Positions 2,941 through 64,000 of a DNA stretch of 64,000 nucleotides are shown piece after piece (position 1 is the first letter of the stretch; each line of letters opens with the position of its first letter). The notes under the pieces are model-generated. The model saw only the letters and a list, made by a program, of their open reading frames with translations, was not told the DNA's origin and made no database searches. The DNA lies in contig CANQVI010000002.1 in assembly GCA_947627255.1 (NCBI GenBank), positions 47-64,046 on the forward strand, given 5' to 3'. A program made the translations under genes and the position numbers. The DNA is from an uncultured Clostridia bacterium. GTDB taxonomy: Bacteria; Bacillota; Clostridia; TANB77; CAG-465.

Positions 2941-4782
2941 ATGTCAAAAGTTATAGGTATAGACTTAGGTACTACAAATTCATGTGTTGCCGTTATTGAA
3001 AACGGTGAACCAACAGTAATTCCAAATGCAGAAGGAGCAAGAACAACTCCATCAATAGTTGCATTTGCAAAAAATGGTGAAAGACTAGTAGGTCAAGTAG
3101 CAAAAAGACAGGCGGTTACTAACCACGATAGAACAGTTATTTCTATTAAAAGAGATATGGGTTCAGATAAAAAAATAAAGATTGATAATAAGGAATATAC
3201 ACCACAAGAAATATCTGCCATGATATTACAAAAATTAAAAAGTGATGCTGAAAATTACTTAGGAGAAAAAGTAACACAAGCTGTTATAACAGTTCCAGCA
3301 TACTTTACAGACTCTCAAAGACAAGCAACAAAAGATGCTGGTAGAATAGCAGGACTTGAAGTATTAAGAATTGTTAACGAACCAACAGCTGCTTCACTTG
3401 CTCATGGTTTTGATAAAGATGCAGAACAAAAAATAATGGTATATGACCTTGGTGGTGGTACATTTGATGTATCAATACTAGATATTGCTGATGGTGTTTT
3501 TGAAGTTATGGCTACAGCTGGTAACAACAGACTTGGTGGTGATGACTTCGACCAAAGAATAATAGATTATTTAGTAAGTGAATTCAAAAAAGAAAATGGC
3601 ATAGATTTATCAACAGATAGTATGGCAATGCAAAGATTAAAAGAAGCTGCTGAAAAAGCTAAAATTGAGCTTTCTGGTGTTATGCAAGCACAAATTAACT
3701 TACCATTTATAACTGCAGATTCAACAGGACCAAAACATATGGATGTTACTCTTACAAGATCTAAATTTGAAGAATTAATTGCAGATTTAGTTGAGTCAAC
3801 TGTTGGACCAGTAAATCAAGCATTAAAAGATTCAGGACTTACTTTTGATAAATTAGATAAAATATTATTAGTAGGTGGTTCTACACGTGTACCTTTAGTA
3901 CAAGATACAGTTAAAAAGATTACTGGAAAAGAACCATATAAAGGAATTAACCCTGATGAATGTGTTGCCATCGGTGCTGCAATTCAAGGTGGTGTTTTAA
4001 CTGGAGAAGTTAAAGATCTTGTATTACTAGATGTTACTCCATTATCACTAGGAATTGAAACTTATGGTGGTGTATTTACAAAATTAATTGAAAGAAATAC
4101 AACAATACCAACTAAAAAATCTCAAATATTCAGTACAGCTGCAGATGGTCAAACTTCTGTTGAAGTACATGTTCTACAAGGTGAAAGAGAAATGGCTTCA
4201 TACAACAAGACATTAGGAAGATTTAGTTTAACTGGAATTCCTGCTGCACCTCGTGGAGTACCACAAATTGAAGTTACATTTGATATTGATGCAAATGGTA
4301 TAGTTCACGTATCTGCAAAAGATATGGCAACTAACAATGAACAAAAAATAGCTATAACAGCTAGTACAAACTTAACAGAAGATGAAATTCAAAATGCTGT
4401 TAAAGAAGCTGAAGCACATGCTGCAGAAGATAAGAAGAAGAAAGAAGAAGTTGAAATTAGAAATAATGCAGATTCTTTAGTATATAATACAGAAAAAACA
4501 TTAAAAGAATTAGAAGGTAAAGTATCTGAAGAAGAAAAATCTAAAGTAGAATCTGAACTTGAAAACTTAAAGAAAACTCTTGAAGGAACAGATACAGAAG
4601 CTATTAAGAGTGCAACAGATAAACTTACTCAAGTATTCTATGATTTAACTTCAAAATTATATTCACAAGCTCAACAACAAAATCCAGGAGCAACAGGAGA
4701 TAATACTGAAAATACAAATAATGCACAAGATAATGTTGTTCATGATGCAGATTATAAAGTAGAAGACGATAATAATAAATAG
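2941..4782 (+). CDS. dnaK: Molecular chaperone DnaK (Hsp70)
   Basis: [34 protein letters not shown] and other Hsp70 signatures. AGGAGG RBS. Confidence 0.99.
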
Positions 4783-10944: not shown

Positions 10945-11208
10945 ATGGATATATTAAAAATTTCAGCAAAATCTAGCCCTAATTCTGTAGCAGGAGCTAT
11001 TGCAGGTCTTGTAAAAGAAAACGGTAGAGCAGAGATGCAAGCAATTGGAGCAGGGGCTATAAATCAAGCAGTAAAGGCAGTAGCAATCGCAAGAGGATTT
11101 GTTGCACCAACAGGGGTAGAACTAGTATGTTCTCCAGCATTCACAGAGGTTACAATTGATAATGAAGACAAAACAGGTATCAAGTTTGTTGTAGAACCTA
11201 AAGTTTAA
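10945..11208 (+). CDS. spoVS: Stage V sporulation protein S
   Basis: MDILKISAKSSPNSVAGAIAG...AIGAGAINQAVKAVAIARGFVAP is near-identical in pattern to Bacillus SpoVS. 87 aa. AGGAGG RBS. Confidence 0.95.
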   Translation: MDILKISAKSSPNSVAGAIAGLVKENGRAEMQAIGAGAINQAVKAVAIARGFVAPTGVELVCSPAFTEVTIDNEDKTGIKFVVEPKV

Positions 11209-50278: not shown

Positions 50279-50410
50279 ATGACAGTAGATGAAATAGAAG
50301 CACAATTCAATGCTTTACAAAGTGAAGTAAAGGAAATAAAAGAGGAAATAGAGTCAGACGCTCATTTGGACTTTATTAATTCTTTAAAACAATATGTTAA
50401 TAAATATTAA
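50279..50410 (+). CDS. Small acidic helical protein, 43 aa, below the ORF-track cut-off
   Basis: TAGGAGGAGAG RBS. Sequence: MTVDEIEAQFNALQSEVKEIKEEIESDAHLDFINSLKQYVNKY. It ends 22 nt before the next gene. Confidence 0.5.
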   Translation: MTVDEIEAQFNALQSEVKEIKEEIESDAHLDFINSLKQYVNKY

Positions 50411-58885: not shown

Positions 58886-58944
58886 GTGTTGTTGAAAAAA
58901 GTTTCTAAATGTAATAATATAAATATATTGAAAGGTTGATGAAT

Positions 58945-60561
58945 ATGAATATAACATTTTATGGTGCAGCGCAAGGTGTTACTGGATCTTGCCATATGGT
59001 AGAAATTGGAAATACCAAATTTTTAGTTGATTGTGGATTGTTTCAAGGTTCACTAACTGATCAAATGTTAAACTATGAAGATTTTCCATTTGACATAAAT
59101 GAAATAGATTTTGTTATTCTAACACATGCACATATTGATCATAGTGGTAGAATTCCTAAGCTATATAAAGCTGGATATAGAAATCCAATATACTGTACTA
59201 GTGCAACAAGAGAACTTTGTAAAATAATGCTACCTGATAGTGGTCATATACAAGAAAAAGAAATTGAATGGGTTAATAGAAAAAGAATGCGTGCTGGTAA
59301 AGCACCAAATGATCCAATATATACACAACAAGATGGTATTGATTGTTTAGAAATTTTTAAAGGATTAGAATATGATAATAAAATAAAAATAAATGATAAT
59401 GTATCTTTTGTATTAAAAGATGCAGGACATATGTTAGGGTCTGCTATTATTGAAGTATATTTAACAGAGGATGATACTGAAAAGAAAGTAGTATTTACAG
59501 GAGATTTAGGTAATACAAATTTACCTATAATTAATGATCCTACAACTGTTGAATCTGCTGATGTTCTTGTTATGGAGTCTACTTATGGTGATAGATTACA
59601 TAGTAGTATAAAGGACCAATCTAGTAAATTTATACAAATAATACTTGATACTATTGAAAGAGGAGGAAATGTAATTATACCTTCATTTGCAGTAGGAAGA
59701 ACTCAAGATATACTATATGAAATAAATAAATATTTATCTGATGATAAAATTAGGGAAAAACTTGAACATATTCCTGTATATGTAGATAGTCCATTAGCTG
59801 TTAATGCAACAAAGATATTTGAATCACAACATGCATATTATGATGATGAGGCATTACAATATTTACTAAAAGGAGATAATCCTTTAGTTTTTGATAATTT
59901 ACATTTTGTTGAAACAGCTGAAGAATCACAAGCATTAAATACAGATGAAACACCTAAGATTATAATATCTGCTAGTGGTATGTGTGAAGTAGGAAGAATA
60001 AAACATCATTTAAAACATAACTTATATAGATCAGAATGTACTATATTATTTGTTGGATATCAAGCAGAAGGAACATTAGGTAAGAAAATATTATCTGGTG
60101 AGCCACTTGTAAAAATATTTGGAGAAGAAATTGCAGTAAAAGCTGAAATTAAATCATTAGATGCTTTTTCAGGTCATGCTGATAGAGATGGACTTTTAAA
60201 CTGGATAGCAGCTATTAAGAAAAAACCTGAACAAATATATTTAGTACATGGTGAAAAAGAAGCACAGCATGTACTAAAGGAATATATAGAACAAGGCTTT
60301 AGAATAAAATGTGCAATACCAGCATATCAAGAAGAATATGATATGAATGGAACATTAATTGCTGATGGTAAAAATTCATATAAAGCTACTAGATTTAACA
60401 TATTAGAATTAATGTCATCATTAAAAGAAGAAGTAGACAATATGACAAATGTAGTAAAGAGAAATTTAAAAAGCGATGTTGCTCCAGAGTATTTACAAAA
60501 TATTGTAGATAAATTAAAAGAAGTTCAATATGCTATTAATGCAGTTAACGAGGAAGAATAG
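58945..60561 (+). CDS. MBL-fold beta-CASP family RNA-metabolising hydrolase
   Basis: MNITFYGAAQGVTGSCH, HAHIDHSG, beta-CASP motifs (ESTYGD, FSGHAD, LVHGE). Start chosen at the ATG at 58945, after AAAGG. Confidence 0.82.
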   Translation: MNITFYGAAQGVTGSCHMVEIGNTKFLVDCGLFQGSLTDQMLNYEDFPFDINEIDFVILTHAHIDHSGRIPKLYKAGYRNPIYCTSATRELCKIMLPDSGHIQEKEIEWVNRKRMRAGKAPNDPIYTQQDGIDCLEIFKGLEYDNKIKINDNVSFVLKDAGHMLGSAIIEVYLTEDDTEKKVVFTGDLGNTNLPIINDPTTVESADVLVMESTYGDRLHSSIKDQSSKFIQIILDTIERGGNVIIPSFAVGRTQDILYEINKYLSDDKIREKLEHIPVYVDSPLAVNATKIFESQHAYYDDEALQYLLKGDNPLVFDNLHFVETAEESQALNTDETPKIIISASGMCEVGRIKHHLKHNLYRSECTILFVGYQAEGTLGKKILSGEPLVKIFGEEIAVKAEIKSLDAFSGHADRDGLLNWIAAIKKKPEQIYLVHGEKEAQHVLKEYIEQGFRIKCAIPAYQEEYDMNGTLIADGKNSYKATRFNILELMSSLKEEVDNMTNVVKRNLKSDVAPEYLQNIVDKLKEVQYAINAVNEEE

Positions 60562-60566
60562 ATGGA

Positions 60567-60603
60567 AAATAACTAATACTTTTATGTATTAGTTATTTTT
60601 TTT
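60567..60603 (+). terminator. Rho-independent terminator
   Basis: ATAACTAATAC-ttttat-GTATTAGTTAT followed by a T-run. Confidence 0.8.
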
Positions 60604-60639
60604 ACTTTGATTAATATAATTTATTAAAAAGGTGAAAAA

Positions 60640-61284
60640 ATGAAAAAAATTAATATAGTTAATTTGAGTTTTGATAAAAAAACTAAAATTGTTATGCTAA
60701 TATGTATAATTATAGCAATTTGTATAATAATCTATTCTTTTTATTACATATGTATAGAAAATGGAATAAAGACAAATGTTTTAAATTCGATTGAAAATTT
60801 AGCTAATATATGTGAGTATAATATAGAATTTAATGTAAAAGTATATAGCAATAAAAATGAAGATGAATATAAAGTAATAGAAAATTCTAATATATTAGAA
60901 AACAGATATAGTTTTTTAATAGATGATGAACTAAACATACAAATAAATAGTAATGAAATAAAAATATCAAAAAAGAATATTGATTATCAATATTTAATAG
61001 AAAGAGGAGAATATAAAAACAATAATTTTATTTCTTTTTCTAGTATTATAAATATAATTAAAGGTATAAATAATCAAAGTATTTCTGGAAATATTAAAAA
61101 AGTTGAATCAGATGGTAAAATAAAATATAAAATTTGTACGGATGCGGAATATATAAATAAAATTAAATGTATAGAGTTAATTATGTCAGATAATGAAGAA
61201 AAAGTAGAAATTATAAATATGTATGATAGTGAAAATAAAGAAAAATATGTAATAACTATAAATAATTTTATACTAAAAAAATAA
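60640..61284 (+). CDS. Membrane-anchored hypothetical protein (214 aa), possibly a LolA-fold YdcC/GerS-like sporulation protein
   Basis: N-terminal TM (IVMLICIIIAICIIIYSFYYI) and a beta-rich N/K/I-rich ectodomain. The YdcC/GerS assignment rests only on its position upstream of mazF (Bacillus order ydcC-alr-ndoAI-ndoA). Confidence 0.3.
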   Translation: MKKINIVNLSFDKKTKIVMLICIIIAICIIIYSFYYICIENGIKTNVLNSIENLANICEYNIEFNVKVYSNKNEDEYKVIENSNILENRYSFLIDDELNIQINSNEIKISKKNIDYQYLIERGEYKNNNFISFSSIINIIKGINNQSISGNIKKVESDGKIKYKICTDAEYINKIKCIELIMSDNEEKVEIINMYDSENKEKYVITINNFILKK

Positions 61285-61297
61285 CTATTAAATATAT

Positions 61298-61326
61298 TTG
61301 ACTAAAAAAGTATAATAGTGTATAAT
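61298..61326 (+). promoter_or_regulatory. Consensus-like sigma-A elements directly upstream of mazF
   Basis: TTGACT (61298-61303), 17 nt, TATAAT (61321-26). A second TATAAT lies at 61311-16. The distal -10 box abuts the RBS, so which box is used is unclear. Confidence 0.4.
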
Positions 61327-61344
61327 AAAGGAGGTAAAGTATAT

Positions 61345-61704
61345 TTGAAAATAAGATTAGGCGACATTTTTTATGCAAATCTAAATCCTACTATTGGATG
61401 TGAGCAGGATGGAATAAGACCCGTTCTTGTTGTACAGAACAATAAAGGAAATAGATTTAGCCCAACTATTGTTATTATACCAATTACCTCAAATATTAAT
61501 AAAACTAGTCTACCCACACATGTGGTTTTAGAAAATACTAAAGGACTAGAAAAAAAGTCTGTAGCACTTGTAGAGCAGATTCGAACACTAGACAAAAAGC
61601 GACTTATACGAAAAATAGCACAAATTGAAGAAAGTGATTTAGAAAATGTAAAACAAGCTATAAAGGATAATTTAAATATAAGAGGAATGATTGATATATT
61701 TTAA
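61345..61704 (+). CDS. mazF: MazF/PemK/EndoA family endoribonuclease toxin
   Basis: LGDIFYANLNPTIGCEQDGIRPVLVVQNNKGNRFSPTIVIIPITS...LPTHV...VEQIRTLDKKRL aligns by eye with B. subtilis EndoA (NdoA). Its catalytic Arg (GIRPV) and Thr (PITS) positions are conserved. TTG start 8 nt after AAGGAGG. Confidence 0.9.
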   Translation: MKIRLGDIFYANLNPTIGCEQDGIRPVLVVQNNKGNRFSPTIVIIPITSNINKTSLPTHVVLENTKGLEKKSVALVEQIRTLDKKRLIRKIAQIEESDLENVKQAIKDNLNIRGMIDIF

Positions 61705-61737
61705 CATAGTTTTATTTATTATATACGGGAGGATAAA

Positions 61738-64000
61738 ATGGATAATAATAAACCCTTAAATGTACGATTAAGATCAAGTGCACAAAAGAAAAAATCAAGT
61801 AGTATAAAAAAAGTAAATAAAAAAGAAATTAATAAAGCAAACAATAATGATAGCAATAAAAAGAATCCAAAAAAGAAAAATAAGAAACTAGGATGGAAAA
61901 TCTTTAGAGTTTTTCTATTTGTTTTCTTAGCATTAGGAATAGTAGGTACAGGTGTTGTTTTAGGTGTTATATCTGGAATTGTTGATGATACAGATAGTAT
62001 AAGCCTAGACGAATTAGAATTATTGCCACAAACATCTTTTGTATATGATCAAGATGGAAACGAAATTGCATCTTTATATGATAGTCAAAACAGAATTATG
62101 GTTAAATATGATAATATACCACAACATACTGTAGATGCTGTTGTAGCAATAGAAGATGAAAGATTTTTTTCACATCATGGAATAGATATTAAAAGAACTC
62201 TTGCCGCTATTGTAACATATGTAGCTAATCGTGGAGAATCATCATATGGTGGTAGTACATTAACGCAACAACTTGTTAAAAATATAACTGATGATGATAA
62301 AAGAACATGGCAAAGAAAGATAAGAGAATGGTATAGAGCTATATCATTGGAAAACAAGCTAAATAAAGACCAAATATTTGAATCATATGTAAATACTATA
62401 TATTATGGTGACGGAGCATATGGTATTGAAGTTGCGTCAAACCATTTCTTCGGTAAGTCAGTTAGTGAATTAAATCTTCCTGAATCAGCTGCAATAGCTG
62501 CTATGATTCAATCACCTGAGATTACAAATCCATATAAAAGTGATGAAGCAAAACAACAGTTATTAGAAAGAAAAGATTTGGTACTTTCAAAGATGTTACA
62601 ATTAGGTAAAATTACTCAAGAAGAATATGATGAAGCAAAGTCATATGAACTTGAATTTAAAAAGAATGATGTAACTTCAGAAAGTACACAAACATATTTT
62701 GTTGATGCAGTTGTAGAAGCTGTAATTTCCGACTTAATGGAACAAAAAAATGTATCTAGAGGTATTGCAATGAAAATGATTTATACTGATGGATATAAAA
62801 TATATTCTACAGAAGATCAAGGTGTACAAAAAGCTATAGATGATGCTTTCGCAAATCCTGGTATCTTCTACTATGACACATACAAAGATAAAGGATATAT
62901 GCAAGGTTCTATGGTAGTTATGGATCAAAAGACAGGTGAAGTTAAAGGCTTAATTGGTGGTGCTTATGAAAAAGATGGAGCATTGACATTAAATAGAGCT
63001 ACACAAACATATAGACAGCCTGGATCTTGTATGAAACCATTTGGTGCTTATGGTCCTGCATTTGAACAAGGATTATTATCTCCTGGTGCTGGACTTGATG
63101 ATACACAATTTTCTATTGGAAACTGGACACCTAAAAACTGGTATGGCGGATACAATGGATATGTAACAGTAAGAGAAGCAATTTACGACTCTAAAAATAT
63201 TCCTGCTTGTAGAGCTAACATGTTAGTAGAAAGCGCAACAGGAAGTCAAGATTTTGCATTAAACTTTGCTAGAAATTGTGGACTTGATACTTTAAGTGCA
63301 GAAAACTCAGATAATAATATACCAGCACTTGCTCTTGGTGGTAATAGTGGTGTTACAGTATTACAACTTGCAAATGCTTATGCAACAATTGCAAATAATG
63401 GTTACCATGTAAATCCAAAATTATATACTAAAGTTTTAGATAGAAATGGTGAAATAGTATTAGATAATACAGCAGTTGAGCCAAAACAAGTTATGAGTGA
63501 TTCTACTGCATTTATGCTTACAAGTTGTCTTGCAAGTGTTGTTGAAACACCAGGTGGTACTGCATATGGTGCTGTTAGTATTAATAATGGTGCTGTTCAA
63601 TGTGCAGGTAAAACTGGTAATACAGATGATGATAAAGATAGATGGTTCTGTGGATTTACACCATATTATACAATAGCTTGTTGGACTGGATATGATAATC
63701 CAACTCCAATAGAAAGAGGATATCCTTATCCATCAACAATGTTATTTAACACTGTTATGAATTCAATATGTTCAGGAAAAGATTCTGCTAGATTCCCAGA
63801 TGCTCCTTCTTCTGTAACAAGAGTAGAGCTATGTAGAGATTCAGGAAAAATAGCAACAGATGCTTGTAAATCTGACCCAAGAGGTTCAAGAGTTTTATCT
63901 GATTATGTAGCGGTATCTAGTATTCCTAAGGATGAATGTACTGTTCATAAATTTGTAAATGTATGTGCTCGTTCAGGAAAATTAGCTTCACCAAGCTGTA
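61738..64000 (+). CDS. Class A penicillin-binding protein (GT51 glycosyltransferase + transpeptidase), 3' end outside the window
   Basis: Not in the ORF track because there is no stop before the window end. GGGAGG RBS. K-rich tail and TM. GT51 motifs AIEDERFFSHHGID, GGSTLTQQ, RKIREW. TP motifs SCMK, SKN, KTGNT. Confidence 0.92.
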   Translation, partial: MDNNKPLNVRLRSSAQKKKSSSIKKVNKKEINKANNNDSNKKNPKKKNKKLGWKIFRVFLFVFLALGIVGTGVVLGVISGIVDDTDSISLDELELLPQTSFVYDQDGNEIASLYDSQNRIMVKYDNIPQHTVDAVVAIEDERFFSHHGIDIKRTLAAIVTYVANRGESSYGGSTLTQQLVKNITDDDKRTWQRKIREWYRAISLENKLNKDQIFESYVNTIYYGDGAYGIEVASNHFFGKSVSELNLPESAAIAAMIQSPEITNPYKSDEAKQQLLERKDLVLSKMLQLGKITQEEYDEAKSYELEFKKNDVTSESTQTYFVDAVVEAVISDLMEQKNVSRGIAMKMIYTDGYKIYSTEDQGVQKAIDDAFANPGIFYYDTYKDKGYMQGSMVVMDQKTGEVKGLIGGAYEKDGALTLNRATQTYRQPGSCMKPFGAYGPAFEQGLLSPGAGLDDTQFSIGNWTPKNWYGGYNGYVTVREAIYDSKNIPACRANMLVESATGSQDFALNFARNCGLDTLSAENSDNNIPALALGGNSGVTVLQLANAYATIANNGYHVNPKLYTKVLDRNGEIVLDNTAVEPKQVMSDSTAFMLTSCLASVVETPGGTAYGAVSINNGAVQCAGKTGNTDDDKDRWFCGFTPYYTIACWTGYDNPTPIERGYPYPSTMLFNTVMNSICSGKDSARFPDAPSSVTRVELCRDSGKIATDACKSDPRGSRVLSDYVAVSSIPKDECTVHKFVNVCARSGKLASPSC

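Follow-up and report, generated by a model that had tools for sequence, protein, structure and literature searches.

The 64-kb stretch of contig CANQVI010000002.1 analyzed here (the window), from an uncultured rabbit-gut organism of the Clostridia with a G+C content of ~27%, carries a mazF gene for an EndoA-type endoribonuclease that is not accompanied by a gene for the antitoxin MazE. The gene is flanked by a gene for a 214-residue YdcC/GerS-related protein and a gene for a class A penicillin-binding protein (PBP), and it has this solo status in every relative sampled. We lean, with moderate confidence, towards an EndoA/MazF-family enzyme whose cis-encoded MazE was lost and which the chromosome retains for its RNase function, not as part of a toxin-antitoxin module. 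The main rival is an unlinked antitoxin.

The mazF locus and the search for an antitoxin

The features of the region, all on the plus strand, are as follows:
60566 to 60607, plus strand: intrinsic terminator, AT-rich, 3' of the beta-CASP RNase gene (inverted repeat with 14-nt perfect arms, 6-nt loop and T-run)
60640 to 61284, plus strand: gene for the 214-residue YdcC/GerS-related, membrane-anchored protein (AlphaFold2 (AF2) model, Foldseek, NCBIfam, synteny)
61285 to 61344, plus strand: gap of 60 nt between the ydcC-like gene and mazF (direct reading)
61298 to 61326, plus strand: sigma-70-type promoter TTGACT-17-TATAAT, the best match of the region (11 of 12 positions)
61330 to 61335, plus strand: Shine-Dalgarno sequence AGGAGG, 9 nt 5' of the TTG start (direct reading; invariant in the close clade)
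61345 to 61704, plus strand: gene for the mazF/endoA-type endoribonuclease, 119 residues, TTG start, stop codon at 61702-61704 (Pfam, phmmer against PDB)
61705 to 61737, plus strand: mazF-PBP spacer of 33 nt with the PBP ribosome-binding site GGGAGG at 61727-61732 (direct reading)
61738 to 64000, plus strand: gene for a class A (bifunctional) PBP1A, ATG at 61738, running off the window end (Pfam, TIGRFAM)

The coordinates and the distances of 60 and 33 nt given in the initial annotation were all confirmed, 61737 being the last spacer base because the PBP gene starts with the ATG at 61738. The gap also contains what had been described, i.e. TTGACT (61298-61303), TATAAT at both 61311-61316 and 61321-61326, and the ribosome-binding site. 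The terminator preceding the ydcC-like gene was missed by the terminator scan, which demands three G-C pairs, and was found as an inverted repeat; in nine related loci the hairpin shows compensatory changes or is replaced by other hairpins. The ydcC-like/mazF/PBP unit is thereby bounded on its upstream side. An assembly artefact was considered and is ruled out, as many samples contributed metagenome contigs with the identical MazF, at least 23 of them independent. Its neighborhood was displayed for six contexts, and seven more were grouped as having mostly the same neighboring genes; all of them share rpoZ, a kinase gene, priA, the beta-CASP RNase gene, the 214-residue protein gene, mazF, PBP1A and NAGPA.

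The protein encoded by mazF matches Pfam PemK_toxin (PF02452) with an E-value of 2.9e-33 and 114.8 bits (cut-off 23.1) over residues 6-108, i.e. 103 of its 119 residues, and phmmer against PDB retrieves B. subtilis EndoA (4ME7/4MDX) at ~1e-31 with Arg25 and Thr48 in register. Both residues are required for catalysis according to mutagenesis (PMC7354611). Arg25 is invariant across every MazF sequence aligned, while position 48 is Thr in all aligned members of the window clade and Ser in P0055 and in the solo MazFs from Erysipelotrichales described below. E20, Q21, H59, S73, E78, Q79, R81, T82, D84, K85 and R87 are kept as well, and the residues of the RNA/antitoxin-binding groove are conserved. 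The earlier impression of a catalytically intact toxin thus holds up in the alignment, as far as residues can tell. Median pairwise ratios of nonsynonymous to synonymous differences per site (pN/pS) amount to 0.23 for mazF, 0.20 for priA, 0.23 for the beta-CASP RNase gene and 0.65 for the ydcC-like gene. Purifying selection on mazF therefore equals that on priA.

The protein has its own peculiarities at positions that are invariant in 34 canonical MazFs: G22 is replaced by D or S in the beta1-beta2 gate loop beside Arg25, A45-A46 by (I/V)-P beside Thr48, and K52/K55 are lost; N33-K34, P46 and K72 are shared with the independent solo MazFs from Erysipelotrichales. These changes could point at an attenuated or functionally changed MazF of weak catalysis or altered specificity, which would be harmless alone and serve as an RNA-binding protein or a very narrow RNase. 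We regard this as improbable: all of the catalytic and groove residues listed above are kept, and as the canonical MazFs used for comparison span a narrow phylogenetic range, many of these differences may simply reflect divergence.

The initial annotation had stated that no antitoxin gene adjoins mazF, and at the locus a six-frame list of open reading frames (ORFs), Pfam and a hidden Markov model (HMM) for MazE are indeed all negative. It had suggested looking for ORFs of fewer than 60 residues; for the stretch from 60.5 to 61.8 kb, the list, which extends down to 20 residues, contains nothing but low-complexity fragments, none of which resembles an antitoxin. Neither of the two longest antisense ORFs of the locus has a Pfam match, and across the whole window Pfam finds no antitoxin-type domain in small intergenic ORFs. 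The MazE HMM was built from 14 EndoAI-type ribbon-helix-helix (RHH) MazE proteins encoded upstream of mazF in more distant relatives and was run unfiltered (--max, E<=10) against all six-frame stop-to-stop fragments of the window and of 75 loci. It gave no match in the window or in close relatives, while the same search recovered 35 MazE genes in more distant loci. Altogether, this HMM detected no MazE-like ORF in the window (64 kb), the adjoining 10 kb or the ~12 kb that surround the mazF gene of each relative. An adjacent, co-transcribed antitoxin gene, by which type II mazEF modules are recognized, is thus missing from the window and from 12 relatives alike. The mazF promoter is strong and conserved, and no palindrome overlaps it that could serve as the operator of an autoregulated mazEF module.

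Two further types of antitoxin were considered and rejected. A small or overlapping antitoxin ORF was found neither in the six-frame list nor by alternative-frame checks in six species. For an RNA antitoxin of the type III repeat kind or of a known RNA family, ToxI-like tandem arrays are absent apart from one 29-nt duplication, and Rfam returned nothing credible. An antisense frame for 74 residues, without family match, lies inside mazF (61371-61595, minus strand); each of the six species checked has this frame open, over 79-109 codons. As antisense ORFs of 80-150 residues occur once per ~3.5 kb in the window, we take it to be a by-product. An ORF for a strongly acidic, helical-looking protein of 43 residues without family match is located in an intergenic region at 50279-50410, upstream of the gene for a 665-residue protein without Pfam match.

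We consider it less likely that the window encodes one half of a working toxin-antitoxin pair, the other half being MazE or an unrelated protein that is encoded elsewhere and neutralizes MazF in trans. Trans-acting and non-cognate antitoxins have been documented, and for the solitary MazF of Myxococcus xanthus the regulator MrpC has been proposed as a surrogate (PMC4803016), although that case is itself disputed. Makarova et al. invoke trans regulation for the many solo toxins they encountered (PMC2701414), and the conservation of the groove that binds RNA or antitoxin would fit such a partner. Apart from the negative searches for MazE-like ORFs and for antitoxin-type domains in small ORFs, a scan of 185,579 genomes with the AT-codon motif NRSxFxREA speaks against it, yielding 60 matches and none in the metagenome-assembled genomes (MAGs) of the clade; the pattern is very narrow and the evidence accordingly weak.

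Ancestry of the locus, its relatives and the YdcC-like protein

The closest canonical homologue of the window MazF, that of Clostridium pasteurianum, is encoded in an acpS-yjeF-YdcC-alr-mazE-mazF arrangement. Clostridioides difficile has gerS-alr2 (PMC4619724) and Bacillus subtilis alr-ndoAI-ndoA (PMC6562991). Together, these loci bear out the ancestral order ydcC-alr-mazE-mazF that had been given in the initial annotation, and the window locus represents this cluster minus alr and mazE.

Twelve relatives were sampled (loci L007-L011, L035, L136-L139, L141 and L142), with MazF identities down to 51%. All twelve contain a solo mazF and all have an orthologue of the ydcC-like gene directly 5' of it; eleven keep the ydcC-like-mazF-PBP1A order, while recG follows in the remaining one. 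Five MAG species with MazF proteins of 64-80% identity share the gene order priA, beta-CASP, ydcC-like, mazF, PBP1A, NAGPA, and the gap between the ydcC-like gene and mazF measures 49-58 nt in them (L011, and L007-L009/L035). In five of six further relatives (MazF 51-71% identical), mazF is immediately preceded by the ydcC-like gene and immediately followed by PBP1A; the upstream flank differs in one of these five (L138). The sixth, L139, exhibits a sleB, ypeB, ydcC-like, mazF, recG arrangement with a gap of just 6 nt before mazF. Because it is common to all 12 relatives, the solo arrangement is not a recent accident; that it is shared by every sampled relative rather than peculiar to one genome had not been foreseen. 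A neighbor-joining tree groups the MazE-linked MazFs together and places the solo MazFs outside, which is weak evidence since the tree is midpoint-rooted, lacks bootstrap values and is based on ~115 residues.

Solo mazF genes are also found outside this group. A second, separate set of EndoA-type mazF genes without antitoxin occurs in Erysipelotrichales (L012, L015, L017, L031 and L033, including Faecalibacillus faecis). There, mazF stands after a terminator and has its own promoter with a CATATAGTA-like -10 box ~20 nt upstream, and the protein contains Ser instead of Thr48. Except in L015, where the sequence stops too early to judge, mazF is followed by genes for two membrane proteins, the second of which is an Rce1-like CPBP protease in L012. 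The MazF protein of L139 (P0108, positions 4001-4408, found on 68 contigs) comprises 135 residues and has a C-terminal extension of ~20 residues; the related solo MazFs P0073, P0078 and P0093 carry acidic or aromatic ends such as DELFKDW. Such tails could be cis-inhibitory. MazF homologues of 45-51% identity without MazE upstream are present in L058, L061, L062 and L063 in a mobile-element-like context with small conserved ORFs typical of conjugative transposons. Upstream of the unit, the gene for a 541-residue RNase of the beta-CASP metallo-beta-lactamase type (58936-60561) directly follows priA, a pairing conserved across the clade. Its best NCBIfam matches are type VII CRISPR Cas14 (450 bits, under the cut-off of 800) and archaeal aCPSF1, not RNase J.

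The 214-residue protein encoded upstream of mazF is a YdcC/GerS-type protein, anchored by a transmembrane (TM) helix instead of a lipobox. This assignment is based on a LolA fold, a weak full-length NCBIfam match and matches of its orthologues. In the AF2 model (predicted local distance difference test, pLDDT, 72.7), an N-terminal helix (residues 13-40) is followed by a beta-rich domain, for which the model indicates a LolA-like unclosed beta-barrel. Foldseek against PDB retrieves LolA with an E-value of 2.6e-8 and a probability of 1.0, and also RseB, LolB and C. difficile GerS (7RAG_A, E 1e-4). The NCBIfam model lipo_GerS_rel (NF041287; GerS-related lipoprotein) covers the full length, albeit below cut-off (E 0.031, 14 bits versus 100), and is matched by eight of 19 aligned orthologues at E<=1; the orthologue in L141 has a faint match to Pfam YdcC (PF27667), and hhalign against C. 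pasteurianum YdcC is weak (E 0.04). Sequence searches among 5.8 billion proteins returned nine homologues, all from the same clade, and a V-x-S-N-K-N-x-N-x-Y motif is common to the upstream ydcC-like proteins of relatives. The protein occupies the ydcC/gerS position with the fold of these proteins, in keeping with the locus order given above. A lipobox of the L-[AS]-[GA]-C type was not found in residues 1-45, and helix 13-40 resembles an uncleaved signal anchor. Since Lys residues precede this helix, the tail of ~12-16 residues is predicted to be basic and cytoplasmic, with one TM helix and the beta-rich domain outside the cell. The genes ydcC and gerS are sporulation genes in model organisms. 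SpoVS is encoded in the window at 10945-11208 (7e-37) and, together with sleB-ypeB in L139, suggests a spore-forming lineage.

The topology bears on the suggestion that the 214-residue protein is itself the partner of MazF. As its folded domain is predicted outside the cell, it is an unlikely binder of cytoplasmic MazF, and this part of the initial annotation is disfavored. A more elaborate version would have the YdcC-like protein act in an anti-sigma-like manner, its tail or TM segment tethering or inhibiting MazF while the LolA/RseB-like ectodomain senses the envelope. The two genes do stay adjacent despite changed flanks, upstream in L138 and on both sides in L139, where they are 6 nt apart. 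Within the close clade, tail and TM helix are the best-conserved part of this fast-evolving protein, and its fold is like that of the envelope-stress sensors RseB/MucB. Yet only the short tail faces the cytoplasm; it is basic, whereas MazE C-termini are acidic, and it is not conserved in the distant orthologues of L138 and L139. The adjacency may also be inherited, as ydcC is near mazEF in canonical loci, too. Of the explanations considered here, this one appears the least probable. A novel type of envelope-coupled RNase switch formed by the conserved trio of YdcC-like sensor, MazF and PBP1A, with MazF controlled not by a soluble antitoxin but via the LolA/RseB-like protein or via sporulation-specific read-through, is very doubtful as well. 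If true, it would make the cleavage of mRNA depend on how peptidoglycan synthesis is faring or on mother-cell fate.

Promoter, dose of MazF and the PBP1A gene

All eleven ydcC-like/mazF/PBP loci keep a -10 box AGTGTATAAT located 18-21 nt 5' of the start, a -35 box at 17-nt spacing and the TTG start of mazF. Promoter and start are conserved although synonymous sites are near saturation. The last codons and the stop of the ydcC-like gene in the window are covered by a 29-nt tandem duplication (61251-61308, 79% identity) that is not obvious in relatives; the -35 box of the mazF promoter, TTGACT, comes from the second copy of this duplication. Two other promoter features were considered and dropped. 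In the close clade, transcription from the internal promoter could start so far downstream that the message lacks the Shine-Dalgarno sequence of mazF, but L138, L141 and L142 do not have the required geometry. The ydcC-like gene is preceded by a conserved (C/T)ATATAAT-like box, for which the evidence is too weak to call a sigma-E-type promoter.

No terminator was found by the terminator scan in the 33-nt spacer between mazF and the PBP gene. This spacer measures 17-36 nt in ten relatives, and in L011 the two genes overlap by 13 nt. Co-transcription of mazF and the PBP gene, raised as a possibility in the initial annotation, is plausible from the missing terminator, the short spacer and the overlap in L011. 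With a conserved terminator after the beta-CASP gene, none between mazF and PBP and a promoter in the ydcC-like/mazF gap, the unit consists of the ydcC-like gene, mazF, PBP1A and onward, and has an internal promoter. The truncated PBP1A of the window contains a Transgly domain (PF00912, 1.5e-59) and a Transpeptidase domain (PF00905, 8e-31) and matches TIGR02074 (2.3e-149, 498.6 bits). The complete protein has 805 residues (L001) and a long Lys-rich cytoplasmic N-terminus.

The solo status of MazF suggests use as an ordinary low-dose RNase and not as half of a toxin-antitoxin pair. Probably, mazF leads a cell-wall operon as its first cistron and is expressed at low dose. MazF would form the usual dimer and cleave single-stranded RNA at motifs resembling UACAU. 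Transcription from the conserved gap promoter would make mazF the first cistron of a mazF-PBP1A(-NAGPA) message, possibly supplemented by read-through from the ydcC-like gene, and the conserved TTG start together with a very short leader would hold the dose low. At such a dose, MazF may trim or regulate transcripts, perhaps those of the cell envelope, without stopping growth, and a dedicated antitoxin would therefore not be needed. A precedent from Staphylococcus aureus renders this physiologically plausible: mazF under its native promoter in a mazE stop-codon knockout still cleaves UACAU, and the strains were grown and assayed (PMC4428803). Overexpression of NdoA without ndoAI inhibits growth of B. 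subtilis, an effect described as bacteriostatic and not bactericidal (PMC6562991). Three fates had been envisaged for the orphaned gene product, namely neutralization in trans, an unrecognized partner such as the 214-residue protein or an RNA, and domestication; conservation, purifying selection and the weak start codon lend support to the last.

Several observations weigh against a low-dose RNase that works without an antitoxin. Canonical mazF genes, too, often begin with a codon other than ATG (mostly GTG), so that the TTG start by itself argues only weakly for dose limitation. With 119 UACAU sites against 121 expected, the window shows no depletion of the motif, and neither do the operon genes of ten species as judged by synonymous-codon shuffling. 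An adaptation of the transcriptome to MazF was therefore discarded. A fully active, unneutralized UACAU-cutting enzyme would meet many targets, and with sites not avoided, some control is to be expected, as neutralization in trans would provide. The antitoxin search covered ~74 kb of a genome of probably one to a few Mb. Finally, the only RNA run, a metatranscriptome, yielded sparse low-depth contigs that map to the PBP gene but not to mazF, and is uninformative.

Comparison with known systems

It has long been debated whether the MazF/EndoA proteins encoded by chromosomes are truly toxins or rather RNases with an ordinary regulatory role. The window toxin is ~50-56% identical to those of the EndoA/NdoA-EndoAI/NdoAI system of B. 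subtilis and of the mazEF systems of S. aureus and C. pasteurianum, is of equal length and shares Arg25, Thr48 and the groove residues. The locus has the ydcC/gerS-type neighbor in common with firmicute alr-mazE-mazF loci, but differs from them in lacking both an RHH MazE gene and an alr gene between the ydcC-like gene and mazF. Furthermore, mazF has its own promoter, a TTG start and PBP1A downstream, not rsb/sigB or unrelated genes. The YdcC (B. subtilis) and GerS (C. difficile) lipoproteins resemble the 214-residue protein in LolA-like fold, size and place upstream of the mazF locus; the latter differs in its match far below the family cut-off and in its TM anchor in place of a lipobox.

Solo toxins are common in large surveys and have been read as trans-regulated or exapted (PMC2701414). 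M. xanthus MazF-mx, likewise chromosomal, without a cognate mazE and retained by its host, is a known solitary case (PMC4803016) that belongs to another MazF subfamily and phylum and has MrpC as proposed surrogate. The window case, by comparison, is common to every sampled relative and has fixed synteny to cell-wall genes. For a conserved chromosomal EndoA orthologue, it allows the ancestral state, the deletion and the selection on the remaining gene to be documented one by one, which sets it apart from solo toxins in general. New are the documented loss of MazE from a conserved chromosomal EndoA locus, the retention of the toxin under selection in every sampled relative and the fixed linkage of a solo mazF to a YdcC-like protein and PBP1A.

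The locus amounts to a natural experiment: the adjacent antitoxin gene disappeared, after which strong selection maintained the RNase in related gut Clostridia, next to the gene for a major peptidoglycan synthase. A PemK/MazF match alone is thus no ground for inferring a toxin-antitoxin system when genomes are annotated. If the antitoxin is truly absent genome-wide, MazF proteins of the EndoA type are able to function on their own as housekeeping enzymes, and these organisms would offer a clean system for asking what EndoA does. Loss of mazEF changes beta-lactam susceptibility in S. aureus (PMC4428803), and this link hints at where to look.
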